A DNA stretch of 7,815 bases, taken from IMG/VR virus record IMGVR_UViG_2690316227_000004. One strand, given 5' to 3'. How positions within the stretch are numbered: the first letter of the stretch is position 1; every line of letters begins with the position of its first letter. This DNA is from a virus (taxonomy: Duplodnaviria > Heunggongvirae > Uroviricota > Caudoviricetes). The notes beneath the pieces are model-generated. The model saw only the letters and a list, made by a program, of their open reading frames with translations, did not search any database and had not been told where the DNA came from. Positions 2,191 to 7,612 of this stretch are shown here, piece after piece. A program made the translations under genes and the position numbers.

Positions 2191-2393
2191 AACCTCACTC
2201 CCAGCGGACGACGGCGACGTCGGGTTGTCCCCAGTACCGACTCCGCATCATTGATCGCCCGGTTAAGCTCATCCAGAGAAGCCGCCGTATATTCAATTCT
2301 GCGACCATCTTTCTGGACAGACACCACCCGTTTACCGGTTAATAAATCAAGGCGCGCCTGACGCAGCGCCTGCAGTTCAGCGACTGTAACCAT
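2187..2393 (-). CDS. W: Head-tail connector / head completion protein W (lambda gpW-like), 68 aa
   Basis: 68-aa ORF MVTVAELQALRQARLDLLTGKRVVSVQKDGRRIEYTAASL... resembles lambda gpW (..[21 protein letters not shown]..) and has the same length. Its stop TGA overlaps the B start (ATGA), and its start lies within the 3' end of A. Confidence 0.9.
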   Translation of the reverse strand: MVTVAELQALRQARLDLLTGKRVVSVQKDGRRIEYTAASLDELNRAINDAESVLGTTRRRRRPLGVRL

Positions 2394-4305
2394 TCACTCC
2401 TCCGGACAGCTTCGCTGCCAGTTCTTTCAGGGTTGGCCGGGTCGTCTCTTCTTCCCGGGATTTTGCCAGTACAGCCAGATCAAGCTGCCAGCGTTGCACG
2501 GACACACGTAATGCCGCGTAGGCATACACCAGGCAGTCCAGCGCTTCGTTACGCCGCTTTTTGTTATCCCACAGCAGACGCATCTTTCCTTTTTCCCACT
2601 TCTCCACCAGCTCTTCCGCCACCAGTTGCTGCGCCTCTGTCTGCGAAAAAATCTCCGGATCATCAGGAAAACGGATGGCATACGACGTGGCTTCATCCGC
2701 AGGCGAGGGATCGGCTTTCATACGGGCATAGAGAATTTCTTTTGCGGTGTCCGTTCCCACTTCACACAGATACACGCCCCGCTGATTGCGGGTTTTTGGC
2801 ATGGTGATCACCGGCTTGCCATAGACAGATGCGCCTTTTACCGGCAGCACCCGGAAAACACCGTGTTTTTTTGATCTCTGATAAACAATTTCACCATCGA
2901 TCCCCCCGGTGTCCCAGCAGACACGGGAAATAGTCATTTCGGTGCCATCCGCATGGCGGTATTTTTTGTTGATCGCCGCATCCACACGTAACAGCGTCTC
3001 TTCCTCATCAGGACGCCCCATAATGATGATTTTATCCACCAGAAAGGCTTCCTCTCCCGGAGCCCATCCCCAGACATACATCTCAAAACGGTTTCGCTGC
3101 GAGTCAATGCCCGCCGTCAGATAAACCACCCGGGCAGGCACCGCCGCCGTGTAACGCACCACCTTATCCATCAGTACCTGGTGATCGAGTTTTTCGCCCA
3201 CGGCCTCTTCCCAGGTCTCGCCCAGCGTGGTGTTCACAAAGGTTTTCAGGCCGTTGGGATCTTTCAGTGCATCCAGCCAGTCATAGACAATCTGTACCCA
3301 GGTGGTGAACGGACTGTACGCCGTCCAGATATGGAACGTGATGGAGCGCGGCGGCGGAATTTCATCACCCCGGGCGCTGAAAAACGTCAGACCGTCACGG
3401 GTCCACATGCCCGTGTTTTCACAGATCCACCGCCCGTTGCTCTGGTCCAGTTCAGACTGATGGATCACGCAGCCATGATGTTCACAGAGGTAGAAAACAC
3501 TTTCAGGGCTGTCCTTCTCCCATTTAAGCCCAAAAGGCGTGGACTCATCGCCAAATTTCAGATACTGCTCCTCCCCACAGTGCGGGCAGGGCACATAAAA
3601 ACGCATAAAATGCGCCGACTCGTTAGCGGCTTTTTCGATCTGGCAGGTGCCTTTGATTTTAGGCGTCGAGCCGCGAATGGATTTTGGCCACACCGACCCC
3701 TCAATACGCTTATCCCCCAGCAGGGTTGGCGAGCCCTCTTTTTCGACATCCGGCTCGAACGAGGAAAGTTCGTCATAGCAGACCACGTCCACGGATTTTT
3801 CACGGTAGTTTTTGGCGGCAGCGCCGCCCAGGCACCAGAAACCGACGCCCGATGAAAAGCGTTTCAGCGTGAGAGTATTGTCACGATGTTTACGACCCAG
3901 CCATGGGGAAAGGTCTTTCAGGCATGGCACGTTCCGAATCGTCGCCTCCACGTGAGACTTCATAAAATCTTCAGCGGCAGAATCCGTGGGCTGAAAAAGC
4001 AGACTGTTTCGGGATTTATGCTCAATAAAATACCCGACCACCCCCAGCAACATCTTTGTATAGCCAACACGGGCAGATTTAATCAGATTAACAGTGCGGA
4101 TCTGATCATTCCCCATGCTGTTCATGATGGCGATCTGGAATGGCAGCGTTTTCCATTCGCCCTCACCATATGAAGATTCTTTAGGCAGATAATAATTTTG
4201 ATCAGCCCATTCAACTGGCGTCACCGGCAATGCCCTTATCAGGGGCTGTAATGCAGTTGTGACAGCGCTCATCATATTATTCAGTTGTTGCTCTGATATA
4301 TTCAT
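2377..4305 (-). CDS. A: Terminase large subunit (lambda gpA-like), 642 aa from ATG at 4303-4305
   Basis: Long collinear similarity to lambda gpA (VEWAD.NYYLPKES.Y.EG.W.TLPFQ.AIMN.MG.D.IR.VN..KSARVGY.KMLLGV..YFIEHK..., CPHCGEEQYLKFGD, WDTGGID, KRRNEALDC.VYA.AALR). The track ORF starts at a TTG 19 codons upstream (4360-4362); the first ATG (MNISEQQ..) aligns with the lambda gpA N-terminus (MNISNSQ..), so it is taken as the start. Overlaps the end of Nu1 as in lambda. Confidence 0.93.
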   Translation of the reverse strand: MNISEQQLNNMMSAVTTALQPLIRALPVTPVEWADQNYYLPKESSYGEGEWKTLPFQIAIMNSMGNDQIRTVNLIKSARVGYTKMLLGVVGYFIEHKSRNSLLFQPTDSAAEDFMKSHVEATIRNVPCLKDLSPWLGRKHRDNTLTLKRFSSGVGFWCLGGAAAKNYREKSVDVVCYDELSSFEPDVEKEGSPTLLGDKRIEGSVWPKSIRGSTPKIKGTCQIEKAANESAHFMRFYVPCPHCGEEQYLKFGDESTPFGLKWEKDSPESVFYLCEHHGCVIHQSELDQSNGRWICENTGMWTRDGLTFFSARGDEIPPPRSITFHIWTAYSPFTTWVQIVYDWLDALKDPNGLKTFVNTTLGETWEEAVGEKLDHQVLMDKVVRYTAAVPARVVYLTAGIDSQRNRFEMYVWGWAPGEEAFLVDKIIIMGRPDEEETLLRVDAAINKKYRHADGTEMTISRVCWDTGGIDGEIVYQRSKKHGVFRVLPVKGASVYGKPVITMPKTRNQRGVYLCEVGTDTAKEILYARMKADPSPADEATSYAIRFPDDPEIFSQTEAQQLVAEELVEKWEKGKMRLLWDNKKRRNEALDCLVYAYAALRVSVQRWQLDLAVLAKSREEETTRPTLKELAAKLSGGVNGYSR

Positions 4306-4783
4306 CAAGTAAATCCGGTAATTTATCCCCTGCCCGCGCACACTGATTTGCCCCCTTAGCAATAAGGGTTTTCAGATGGTCAAGATGGCGCGGTGTTAAA
4401 TCAGGAAACTGTCGCTGCATGGATAAAGGGATGGAATCAAGCGTACTGGATAACGCCATTGCCAGCTTACTGAGGGCAAAAATACAGAATCCGGTGTCAA
4501 TAAGCTTACCTTCGGTTACCTGATTTTTAAGTTTTTGAGCTACGGCCTGTTCTTCTGTCAGTTCAGCTCTGGCCCGAAGCAGCCTTTCCTCCAGATCGCC
4601 CTCGTCATCAGGTATTCTCTGATTGTGTTGTCGCCGCTCGCGATCTATCTCCAGTACAGTTTTAACGTCATAAAAAACTTCCCTCCCCCGACGCTCAACA
4701 GGAGGAACGCCCCATTTATCAAATGCCTGAACAGATATACCGATGGAGGAGGCCATATCACTTTTATTCAATAAAAAGGCCAT
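4277..4783 (-). CDS. Nu1: Terminase small subunit (lambda Nu1 / phage 21 gp1-like), 168 aa from ATG at 4781-4783
   Basis: MAFLLNKSDMASSIGISVQAFDKWGVPPVERRGREVFYD..V aligns residue-for-residue with the lambda Nu1 N-terminal winged-HTH region (MEVNKKQLADIFGASIRTIQNWQEQGMPVLRGGGKGNEVLYD). The C-terminal region (FCIFALS...PLSMQRQFPDLTPRHLDHLK) matches the lambda Nu1 C-terminus. GGAGAGGAG lies just upstream of the chosen ATG. The track ORF begins 35 codons upstream at ATG 4886-4888, but that stretch is AT-rich, lacks an SD and overlaps the cosB repeats. Confidence 0.85.
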   Translation of the reverse strand: MAFLLNKSDMASSIGISVQAFDKWGVPPVERRGREVFYDVKTVLEIDRERRQHNQRIPDDEGDLEERLLRARAELTEEQAVAQKLKNQVTEGKLIDTGFCIFALSKLAMALSSTLDSIPLSMQRQFPDLTPRHLDHLKTLIAKGANQCARAGDKLPDLLDEYIRATTE

Positions 4784-4810
4784 CTCCTCTCCATAAGCCA
4801 TCGATAAAAA

Positions 4811-4964
4811 GCGATACAACAACCATGTGTTTTTACAAAACCATTTGATATCATTTACATTTTTCGCATTGACGACATCAAAACACATCGTAAGGTTGTT
4901 GTATTTATTTTATTTTCACCTTACTTATCAATTAGATATACCAAACAATTAAACAACAACTCCC
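4811..4964 (-). promoter_or_regulatory. cosB-like terminase small-subunit binding region: three copies of an ACAACAAC-type element (R3/R2/R1-like) with an AT-rich spacer
   Basis: Between cosN and the Nu1 start there are three related elements: + strand 4942-4962 (caaacaattaaacaacaac), 4894-4903 (ggttgttgta, inverted) and 4814-4824 (atacaacaacc). Sites 2 and 3 belong to a longer imperfect inverted repeat (4814-4835 vs 4880-4906). The two-direct-plus-one-inverted layout, the AT-rich stretch 4904-4950 and the spacing to cosN and Nu1 mirror lambda cosB (R3-I1-R2-R1), though the motif is not lambda's. Confidence 0.55.
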
Positions 4965-4993: not shown

Positions 4994-5015
4994 CCGCGAG
5001 GTCGCCGCCCCGTAA
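4994..5015 (-). other. cosN nicking site; 12-nt cohesive end GGGCGGCGACCT (minus strand) at 4999-5010
   Basis: The reverse complement of 4981-5010 is GGGCGGCGACCTCGCGGGTTTTCGCTATTT, identical to the lambda left cohesive end and its first bases as recalled. The adjacent bases on the other side (reverse complement of 5011-5040, GGGTCCTTTCCGGCGATCCGGGCCGTTACG) closely match the lambda right end (GGGTCCTTTCCGGTGATCCGACAGGTTACG). Confidence 0.9.
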
Positions 5016-5362: not shown

Positions 5363-5620
5363 CTACTTCGCTTTTGCTTCCGCTCGCTTACGCCGGCGCT
5401 CTTCTTTCCTCTCGGCTTTTGCCATGTCCATGAATGCCTGCATGATCGAGTTCCGCATCATGTAGCTAACAAAGTGATGATTGACACAGCCGTTGAGGCG
5501 CAGCTGCTCGCCAAACTCATCCACCGAGGCCAATGCTTCCATCATACCCTTCTCGCCTTTCATGAACTCTGAGAAGTCGCGCCCCGCTCTGGAGGCGCAT
5601 TCAATGACACGATCACTCAT
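5363..5620 (-). CDS. Hypothetical small protein (85 aa) with a highly basic Lys/Arg/Glu-rich C-terminal tail; translationally coupled to the upstream KilA-N-like gene
   Basis: ORF with ATG at 5618-5620 overlapping the upstream gene's stop (ATGA). The C-terminus is AKAERKEERRRKRAEAKAK. No family recognised from memory. The coding call rests on the coupling and on its position in an otherwise gene-dense phage segment. Confidence 0.6.
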   Translation of the reverse strand: MSDRVIECASRAGRDFSEFMKGEKGMMEALASVDEFGEQLRLNGCVNHHFVSYMMRNSIMQAFMDMAKAERKEERRRKRAEAKAK

Positions 5621-6114
5621 CCCGGAAGCCCGGGGATCGAAATCTGCAACTGGTTAGCCAGGGAGTTAATTTCAGCGATCAAACCAGGTTTCGTGTAGCG
5701 CCATGCCGCGAGGCCTTGTCCACAGAAGCTCGCCATGTCTTTTTTCTGATCAAACTCATGACATTTCATGTTGAGCTGCGCACTTAAGCTGTTCCGATGA
5801 TGAAGCTCTCCGGTGAAGTAATCATCGAGGACTTTATAGGCTGCATATTTAAATCCGGGGTTTAGCCATGCTGCGTAATCATAAGCAACGAACTTTCCGC
5901 CATAAGTTCCACCGTGCGCACCGCGTTCCGTAAAAACCACAGATTCGTGGTTTTTCTCCAGCTCAGCCAAGAACTCTTTGGTCTGCTTGTTTCGCAGGTA
6001 GTGGTACGGAGATTCAGATTCACTTTTACCACTGGCTTTCCACATATCAGTGAGGCAGATCATGCCATCTTCACCGATACGGATTGGTTGATTGAAGAGG
6101 GTTAATGATTTCAT
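5617..6114 (-). CDS. KilA-N-like domain protein (putative DNA-binding accessory/moron protein), 165 aa
   Basis: ATG at 6112-6114. The N-terminal region IRIGEDGMICLTDMWKASGK....YLRNKQTKEFLAEL...GG.GTYG..FVAYDYAAWLNPGFKYAAYKVLDDY fits the pattern I recall for KilA-N/APSES-type domains. The assignment is from memory, not a search. Confidence 0.6.
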   Translation of the reverse strand: MKSLTLFNQPIRIGEDGMICLTDMWKASGKSESESPYHYLRNKQTKEFLAELEKNHESVVFTERGAHGGTYGGKFVAYDYAAWLNPGFKYAAYKVLDDYFTGELHHRNSLSAQLNMKCHEFDQKKDMASFCGQGLAAWRYTKPGLIAEINSLANQLQISIPGLPG

Positions 6115-6316: not shown

Positions 6317-6754
6317 TTATTTCAGGCATTGCGTCCTGATGTACTCCTGCAGGTAGTTAACCTGCGCGGTTATCTTGTCGATTCCACCTCGGAGACGGTA
6401 ATAATTGAGTTCAGCATCTGCTGTAAGTCCTGGGCTTTCTCCATCGCCCATGCTGCTGGCTCCGGTCGTTGACTTTGCACAGGTGGCGGAGACTTGCAGG
6501 CGCTTACGCCCAGCAGAAACATCAGCACGGAGACTTTCGATAGTCGCATTAGCATCAGCAAGCTCCTTTGTGTATCTGGCGTCAAGTTCTGCTACATCAC
6601 GTTGCCGCTTCTGCATATCAGCGATGATGGATGTGGCTTTATCGCGCTGCTCTTTGTAGGCGATGGCGTTATCACGGTAATGATTAACAGCCCATGAAAG
6701 GCAGACGATGAGGCAGATGACCAGAACGTAGATAATCGCGGTTACTCTGCTCAT
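6317..6754 (-). CDS. Rz: Spanin inner-membrane subunit (i-spanin, lambda Rz-like), 145 aa from ATG at 6752-6754
   Basis: [39 protein letters not shown]... is nearly identical at the N-terminus to lambda Rz ([39 protein letters not shown]) and shares YTKELADA and a C-terminal QC. The track ORF begins 4 codons upstream at GTG; the ATG overlapping the endolysin stop (ATGA) is preferred. Confidence 0.92.
6370..6555 (-). CDS. Rz1: Spanin outer-membrane lipoprotein subunit (o-spanin, Rz1-like), 61 aa, fully embedded in Rz in the +1 frame
   Basis: [20 protein letters not shown]|[16 protein letters not shown]... has a signal peptide, a lipobox (VSAC) and a Pro-rich mature region, as in lambda Rz1. 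AAGGAG lies 7 nt upstream of ATG 6553-6555. The track ORF start at 6583-6585 is a TTG. Confidence 0.8.
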
Positions 6755-7248
6755 TGTTGCCCCCACAAACAGACTTCACGCTCAATCTCACGGCGAGTCA
6801 TCAGCCCTTTCCATTGCTTACCGCCAGCGTATGTCCAGCGCCGTAGCTGATCACATGCGCCTTTGATATCGCCCTGGTTTATTTTGCGAAGAAGCGTCGA
6901 TGTTCTGAAATTGCCAGCGCCCACGTTGTAAACGAACGAGTAAAGAGCGCCGCGCGTTGTTTCCGGTATATCGACTTTGATGTACGGGTTTATTTGTCTG
7001 GCGACCGTGGCAAGGTCTTTATTCAGGAGGGCTTTGCATTCTGCTTCGGTATACGTTTTACCGGGCATGATGTCTTTTCCGGTGTGTCCATGACATACAG
7101 TCCATACGCCAACGATATCTTCGTATGGTATGTAGCTGACACCTTCCAGGCCATCGTCACCACTCGGACCAGTGATGAGCACAGACGCTATGGCAACAGC
7201 CCCACCACCAATAGCAGCAGCAACGGCTTTTCGTAATGATGGAGGCAT
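6751..7248 (-). CDS. R: SAR (signal-anchor-release) endolysin, T4-lysozyme-type muramidase (phage 21 R21-like), 165 aa
   Basis: The N-terminus [30 protein letters not shown] is a Gly/Ala-rich weakly hydrophobic SAR domain. It is followed by an E-x8-D-x5-T catalytic arrangement ([17 protein letters not shown]). The sequence is near-identical to the phage 21 endolysin as I recall it. The start ATG overlaps the holin stop (TAATG). Confidence 0.93.
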
Positions 7249-7454
7249 TATTCACCTCTCGCAGCCTTGCGCTTATCTTCTTTAATCTTGAAATAAAGGT
7301 TTGTCAGATACGTCAGCAGGCCAAACAGCAGACTCCCCAGCACACCTATTGCCACCCACTGGGACGGAGAGACTTTGTCCAGCAGCTGCAGTAACCAGTA
7401 TCCCGTCCCCACCGCTGACGTGGTGTATGACACACCCGTTGTGATTTTTTCCAT
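7248..7454 (-). CDS. S: Class II holin / pinholin (phage 21 S21-68-like), 68 aa
   Basis: [68 protein letters not shown] has two predicted TMDs and a charged C-terminus, closely resembling S21-68 ([68 protein letters not shown] as recalled). GGAGA lies upstream of the ATG. It sits immediately upstream of the SAR endolysin. Confidence 0.92.
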
Positions 7455-7499
7455 CTGATGTATGTCTCCGTCACCGCCGACAGAAAATGAAAGTAAAGG

Positions 7500-7534
7500 A
7501 AAACAAAAAGCCGCCAGTGTCGCCCACTGACGGC
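7500..7534 (-). terminator. Strong rho-independent terminator 45 nt upstream of the holin ATG (tR'-like terminator of the late leader)
   Basis: Minus-strand RNA GCCGUCAGUG-GGCGA-CACUGGCGGC (10-bp stem with one G-U pair, 5-nt loop) followed by UUUUUGUUUU. In lambdoid phages the late promoter pR' is followed by a leader ending in tR', which Q-modified polymerase reads through. Confidence 0.7.
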
Positions 7535-7612
7535 CAACGCCGGGAGCCGTGATTATGGCATTCAGGCTCTGCTAAAAATGCCAGATAACATTCCGGCTCC
7601 CCCCTGATTCAG

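Follow-up and report, generated by a model that had tools for sequence, protein, structure and literature searches.

The question raised by this locus is whether a prophage lysis gene of the phage 21 type encodes an antiholin at all. In textbook accounts, holin timing is fine-tuned by a dual-start antiholin, and a sequence-only reading of the DNA had proposed that the S21-type pinholin gene found here lacks that form. The DNA analyzed (hereafter, the window) is a 7,815-nt stretch of IMG/VR virus record IMGVR_UViG_2690316227_000004, and all positions given are those of the window. Comparison with relatives supports the proposal; judging from sequence, the gene very probably yields only the 68-residue form of the phage-21-type pinholin, because the codon homologous to the S21-71 start, from which the inhibitor form would be read, is ATA.

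The pinholin gene and its lysis cassette

The pinholin gene (S21 family, class II holin) occupies positions 7248..7454 on the minus strand. According to the ORF list and its translation, it consists of 68 codons followed by TAA, with a single ATG at 7454 and the stop codon at 7250-7248, and its 68-aa product starts with MEKITTG. The sequence-only reading had placed and described this ORF correctly, including its match to the 68-residue form. Translation upstream of Met1 showed that the reading frame is closed by a TAG at 7574-7572 (minus strand) and that none of the 39 in-frame codons between this stop and the pinholin ATG is ATG, GTG, or TTG, confirming the earlier claim that no such start precedes the stop. 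The program used to list ORFs, which begins each one at the first ATG, GTG, or TTG after a stop, agrees with a single pinholin start, and the PGAP gene model in a 99%-identical E. coli prophage is the same 68-aa CDS (RefSeq WP_000411802.1). The informative comparison, however, is with the homologous upstream ATG, which is kept in nearly all relatives, and not with the chance absence of starts in 39 codons.

Two other candidates in this region were considered and rejected. A GTG at Val8, taken as an internal downstream start, would truncate the protein into its first transmembrane domain (TMD1) and is suggested by no relative. A hidden antiholin was sought in the only other minus-strand ORF of at least 40 aa that overlaps the region upstream of the pinholin (7346..7537, minus strand; 63 aa with a TTG start). 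This ORF is out of frame, overlaps S, and is annotated neither in phage 434 nor by PGAP, and it was judged to be spurious.

The predicted pinholin matched Pfam PF04971 ("Bacteriophage P21 holin S") over residues 2-64 and scored 112.1 bits (E=1.2e-32), above the curated cutoff of 26. Its N-terminus is short (MEKITT) and its C-terminal tail is basic, with six Lys/Arg vs. three Asp/Glu, which is the pattern seen in S21-68. The topology is a prediction from hydropathy estimates only, in which mean Kyte-Doolittle values were 0.71 for TMD1 (weak and SAR-like) and 1.59 for TMD2 (strong); TMD1 is slightly more hydrophobic in the window than in S21 (0.71 vs. 0.45). In the protein alignment, G37, S41, and G45 (68-residue numbering) were invariant among the window, 434, H-19B, and phage 21, and we take these residues to be the GxxxSxxxG glycine zipper of TMD2 (G40/S44/G48 in S21-71 numbering). 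Every testable defining feature of the S21 pinholin family was found, partnership with a SAR endolysin among them, and by sequence the window gene is a member of that family. Because TMD2 is conserved and the protein is 75% identical to S21, it would be expected to form heptameric pinholes of ~2 nm, depolarizing the membrane without endolysin release.

The pinholin gene opens a lysis cassette of the phage 21 type, in which SAR endolysin and Rz/Rz1 spanin genes follow, and it very probably gives one translation product and no holin/antiholin pair. Its stop codon overlaps the ATG of the endolysin gene (TAATG). The latter, at 6751..7248 on the minus strand, encodes an R21-type lysozyme of 165 aa (PF00959, E=8e-46) that is identical to phage 21 R at 158 of 165 residues (96%), including the Gly/Ala-rich N-terminal SAR segment. 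An Rz-type i-spanin gene is found at 6317..6754 (minus strand; PF03245, E=1e-34), where the PGAP CDS of the 99%-identical E. coli prophage also maps. The Rz1-type o-spanin gene lies within Rz in another frame (6370..6555, minus strand) and was recognized from the ORF translation (PF06085, E=4e-20); its start is approximate, and we infer it to be Met11 of the listed ORF, ahead of the lipobox LGVSAC. Upstream of the pinholin, a scan found a terminator-like hairpin of 11 pairs (7 G-C) followed by TTTTTGTTTT at 7499..7535 (minus strand), ~45 nt from the pinholin start. Phage 434 has an annotated "terminator" at the corresponding stretch, which phage 21 conserves in part. A second terminator-like hairpin was observed at 7580-7597 (minus strand). 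Both hairpins are upstream of the pinholin gene and inside the late operon, where Q antitermination presumably lets transcription pass them.

The DNA of the window comes from a lambdoid Escherichia prophage, and along its whole length it shares 99.0% identity with a prophage of E. coli Res13-Lact-PEA14-20. The lysis cassette is followed by the KilA-N gene, cosN, Nu1-like small terminase, large terminase, W, and portal. Between the spanins and cos lies a gene for a 165-aa protein with KilA-N and ORF11CD3 domains (5617-6114, minus strand), which is overlapped by an 85-aa ORF with no Pfam match (5363-5620, minus strand). Since 434 has a bor/Iss-like lipoprotein gene in this interval, the interval looks like a moron or mosaic slot. 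An exact copy of the lambda cosN 12-mer, GGGCGGCGACCT, occurs at 4999-5010 (minus strand) between the 85-aa ORF and the Nu1-like gene, where cos is expected. As ~0.8 matches with up to two mismatches are expected by chance, it is the position of the site and not the count that makes it credible. The terminase ORFs (small, 4277-4888; large, 2377-4362; both minus strand) are longer than the corresponding PGAP models of 480 nt and 1,929 nt, respectively, and translation probably begins at internal ATGs. In the listed 203-aa small terminase ORF, the Nu1 domain starts only at residue 41.

The start region

Alignment with S21 and its relatives placed Met1 of the window protein at Met4 of S21-71, i.e., at the start of S21-68. 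The sequence-only reading had stated that the two S21 starts are three codons apart, and this is how S21-71 and S21-68 are annotated in the phage 21 record (OL657228.1), which the S21-71 query sequence matched at 100%. From the Shine-Dalgarno (SD) region to the start, the window reads GGTGAC GGAG AC ATA CAT CAG ATG GAA, so that ATA CAT CAG ATG (I-H-Q-M) stands where phage 21 has two in-frame ATGs. The ATA (7461..7463, minus strand) is homologous to the upstream ATG of S21-71 and of 933W, as determined from the phage 21 DNA alignment, the start-region classes over 160 loci, and the 933W sequence. The SD core, GGAG (7466..7469, minus strand), pairs more stably with the anti-SD than any other site in the 40 nt upstream (about -6.6 kcal/mol) and is located 11 nt before the pinholin ATG and 2 nt before the ATA; the equivalent bases in phage 434 are annotated as ribosome_binding_site. 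Phage 21 reads GGAGG CGTTGCT ATG AAA TCA ATG GAC and 933W, annotated at 71 aa, reads GGGAGACGGGGT ATG TAC CAG ATG GAA, and in each the SD is 7 nt before the upstream ATG. Judged from these alignments, the upstream start in the window is destroyed and its ribosome-binding site is 5-6 nt closer to the remaining ATG than in phage 21. An equivalent of S21-71 therefore cannot be made in the window, since ATA replaces the upstream ATG and the SD has moved.

Three features define the dual-start holin/antiholin class, and the window gene has none of them. Two in-frame starts a few codons apart, as in lambda S105/S107 and S21-68/S21-71, are absent. The codons between the ATA and the ATG (CAT CAG) specify His and Gln, neither of which is the extra Lys or Arg of an N-terminal extension, and the SD that would serve an upstream start is only 2 nt from the ATA. 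The window gene is thus outside this class.

It could be argued that a trace of an N-terminally extended, 71-residue product is still initiated at the near-cognate ATA (7463-7461) and acts as an antiholin. The ATA is exactly at the position of the S21-71 and 933W upstream ATG, a weak GGTGA precedes it by 7 nt, and AUA can be used for initiation in E. coli at ~1-2% (range, 0.02-3%) of the level of AUG (10.1101/063800). Against this, the strongest SD is only 2 nt from the ATA, and a minority species of 1-2% is unlikely to titrate the holin. Moreover, the product would begin with fMet-His-Gln and have no Lys or Arg, whereas it is the extra basic residue of S21-71 that is credited with making this protein an antiholin (PMC9636201; 10.1101/2024.01.23.576932; PMC13056207). 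We consider functional initiation at the ATA to be highly improbable and retain the reading in which only the 68-residue protein is made.

RNA structure resembling sdi was also considered as a regulator of the start and was rejected. When 101 nt at the start were folded, z-scores were -0.84 for the window, -0.25 for phage 21, and -1.68 for a 933W-type locus, and none of the three folds stood out from shuffled sequences.

Distribution of start types

In order to survey the family, 160 loci were fetched and their in-frame starts classified. With one genome per species (77 loci, from genera including Enterobacter, Klebsiella, Salmonella, Kosakonia, Phytobacter, Raoultella, and Buttiauxella), two Met starts with Lys or Arg between them were found in 73 of the 77 (~95%). 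By type, these were MYRM (30 loci), MKSM (20), MRM (7), MLRM (6), MHRM (4), MIRYM (4), and MKM (2). Two ATGs without a basic residue (MYQM) were present in three loci, and a single start was seen in one, from E. albertii. Among the best 80 IMG/VR hits, all of which were at least 92% identical to the window protein, no Lys/Arg dual start was found; 58 had two ATGs without a basic residue (MYQM, MNQM, or MDQM) and 22 had a single start.

Some near-identical loci of the Escherichia-type S21 holin were found in assemblies labeled as unrelated organisms. One was a 376-nt contig labeled Xanthomonas pisi (L085), and others (L088, L092, L095, L101, L125, and L130) were in MAGs labeled Nanosynbacter, Bacillota, Veillonella, Segatella, and Geobacteraceae. 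Contamination or mis-binning of enterobacterial prophage contigs is the likeliest explanation for these odd taxa.

The single-start allele itself is widespread. The exact 29-mer GGAGACATACATCAGATGGAAAAAATCAC of the start region occurred in at least 120 IMG/VR contigs. When a 151-nt query (91 nt upstream and 60 nt coding) was compared with complete E. coli genomes, with a match defined as coverage of at least 80%, the window-type start region was found in 698 of 5,426 genomes (~13%). Equivalent queries, also counted by coverage, identified the 933W type in 2,134 complete E. coli genomes and the phage-21 type in 81. These data bear on the suggestion that the loss of the upstream start reflects a sequencing error or the decay of a pseudogene in a defective prophage, of which E. 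coli has many. The same start region is present in the functional phages 434 and H-19B as well as in the viral contigs and complete genomes just described. In addition, the window ORF is intact and 100% identical to the 434 pinholin, and the R, Rz, and Rz1 genes that follow it are intact. An error or pseudogene is exceedingly improbable, being ruled out by the prevalence of the allele and by the functional phages that carry it.

A second possibility is that an antiholin is supplied from elsewhere, either by a separate phage gene or in trans by dual-start S21 genes of co-resident lambdoid prophages. E. coli genomes carrying the window region had a median of two and up to 14 S21-like start regions each, and separate antiholin genes are known in other phages, e.g., P1 LydB and T4 RI. 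However, neither the interval from the upstream esterase gene to S nor that from Rz to Nu1 contains an ORF for a small membrane protein; the two ORFs in the latter encode the KilA-N protein and a soluble 85-aa protein. The curated annotation of 434 lists no antiholin. The commonest co-resident type (933W-like, MYQ) is also without a basic residue, and supply in trans would require co-induction. An external source of antiholin therefore seems improbable, and a pinholin gene with the 68-residue protein as its only form remains the preferred reading.

Two distinct 68-aa cores, that of the window among them, were each found with both MYQ and single-start upstream sequences, and homology between the 933W-type and the 434/H-19B-type upstream regions ends within a few bases of the ATG. 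Taken together, the shared cores and the break in homology at the ATG imply that the difference in start is a property of the upstream module and not of the protein. When IMG/VR loci, including L014-L017, were compared with window positions 7455-7484, a sharp mosaic junction was seen at the translation start, where identical cores adjoin unrelated upstream modules.

Start types were also observed in Shiga toxin (Stx) phages. Stx1a-converting phages of the phage collection matched the window at ~95% across the upstream region and S. These phages and H-19B match the single-start upstream region of the window, and the Stx2 phage 933W has the MYQ dual ATG. Such sequence matches hint that pinholin start type may track stx type, an association read from match coverage for most records.

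By parsimony, a dual start with a basic residue would be ancestral in the family, with the Escherichia clade either degenerate (no basic residue) or without the upstream ATG. The window allele may accordingly represent the final stage of a process in which one S21 clade, restricted to Escherichia, lost the charge-based antiholin isoform in two steps and came to time lysis without a trans-acting antiholin, a proposal we find plausible without quite leaning toward it. In the first step the basic residue would have been lost, giving the 933W/Stx2 type (M-Y-Q-M), and in the second the upstream ATG would have been lost and the SD moved, giving the 434/H-19B/Stx1 type. A full-text literature search found no statement of such a two-step loss in the Escherichia S21 clade.

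Lysis timing and known systems

The route from gene to lysis is drawn here by analogy with phage 21. The 68-residue protein would first build up in the inner membrane in its inactive state, in which both TMDs are inserted. TMD1, which is weakly hydrophobic and acts as an intramolecular inhibitor, would then leave the bilayer and free TMD2, whose conserved glycine zipper would allow it to oligomerize into small pinholes and so dissipate the proton motive force. Release of the membrane-tethered SAR endolysin would follow, with its refolding and activation, after which the spanins would disrupt the outer membrane. In phage 21, the extra Lys of S21-71 holds TMD1 in the membrane and ties S21-68 into inactive heterodimers (PMC9636201; 10.1101/2024.01.23.576932; PMC13056207). 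Since an S21-71-like isoform would not be made from the window gene, timing would be set solely by the level of expression and by the brake that TMD1 exerts within its own molecule. By this analogy, TMD1 is likely the sole timer of the pinholin, without any antiholin isoform acting in trans, and the expected phenotype would be somewhat earlier lysis than with an isogenic dual-start allele. The higher hydrophobicity of TMD1 relative to S21 might offset the missing antiholin. If the two-step loss is true, the phages of this clade, many Stx phages included, would time lysis, and hence toxin release, without a trans-acting antiholin, perhaps with that slight increase in TMD1 hydrophobicity as compensation.

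The single-start allele is real but ordinary, and it is already in databases with this gene model (434, the H-19B architecture, and RefSeq). A full-text literature search, with key older papers outside its reach, found no explicit comment on loss of the antiholin start in the pinholins of 434, H-19B, or Stx phages. As a naturally occurring single-start form of the best-studied pinholin, the allele offers a comparison that already exists, yet the window adds no new biology. What remains useful is the pattern across the family, in which the basic-residue dual start is strongly conserved in enterobacterial S21 homologs and is degenerate or absent in the Escherichia clade, including Stx1 and Stx2 phages; this constitutes a natural experiment on antiholin function. 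Nature has already joined the three start configurations to one core, which bears on the share of S21-71 in lysis timing and on Shiga-toxin release.

Pinholins without a dual start have already been described. Haemophilus phage HP1 has an experimentally studied pinholin/SAR-endolysin system that is reported to be without a dual-start motif or antiholin (PMC7312051). Its pinholin, likened to that of the window by description, is an unrelated protein of 78 aa for which another change of topology has been proposed.

Phage 21 S21 (OL657228.1) shares with the window pinholin its Pfam family, two-TMD layout, TMD2 glycine zipper, and basic C-terminal tail; the phage 21 holin is 75% identical to that of the window, and its gene likewise overlaps the SAR endolysin gene. 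They differ at the start. The phage 21 record carries nested annotations for "antiholin, S21-71 product of dual start" (MKSMDK...) and "holin class II, S21-68", with ATG AAA TCA ATG (M-K-S-M) at the start where the window has ATA CAT CAG ATG and an SD moved 5-6 nt downstream. The S protein of 933W (AF125520, AAD25449.1; Stx2-phage type) has a near-identical 68-residue core (65/68 per the 434 record), and at some loci of the 933W type the core is 100% identical to that of the window. Unlike the window, 933W has retained both ATGs in frame (M-Y-Q-M; annotated 71 aa), separated by no basic residue, and it has another upstream module, with a DUF826 gene, and another endolysin.

The single start is shared with two phages. 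S of the Stx1 phage H-19B (AF034975, AAD04658.1) is annotated as a 68-aa protein, 96% identical to that of the window, with the same single start and upstream sequence and with three residue differences, all in the C-terminal tail. The H-19B R gene does not overlap S and is ~400 nt downstream, whereas R overlaps S in the window. The phage 434 pinholin (OL657226.1, CPT_434_72, UMO75336.1; 68 aa) is 100% identical to the window protein, and its upstream sequence is the same, with GGAG as the ribosome-binding site, a terminator upstream, and ATA CAT CAG ahead of the ATG. The record gives one "holin class II; pinholin" and no antiholin, although the same annotators marked both forms in phage 21. 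Downstream of the spanins, 434 has the bor/Iss-like lipoprotein gene, whereas the window has the KilA-N gene and 85-aa ORF before cos/Nu1. In 434, as in the window, the pinholin gene overlaps that of an R21-type SAR endolysin, and the two are 94.4% identical at the DNA level over a 716-nt region.
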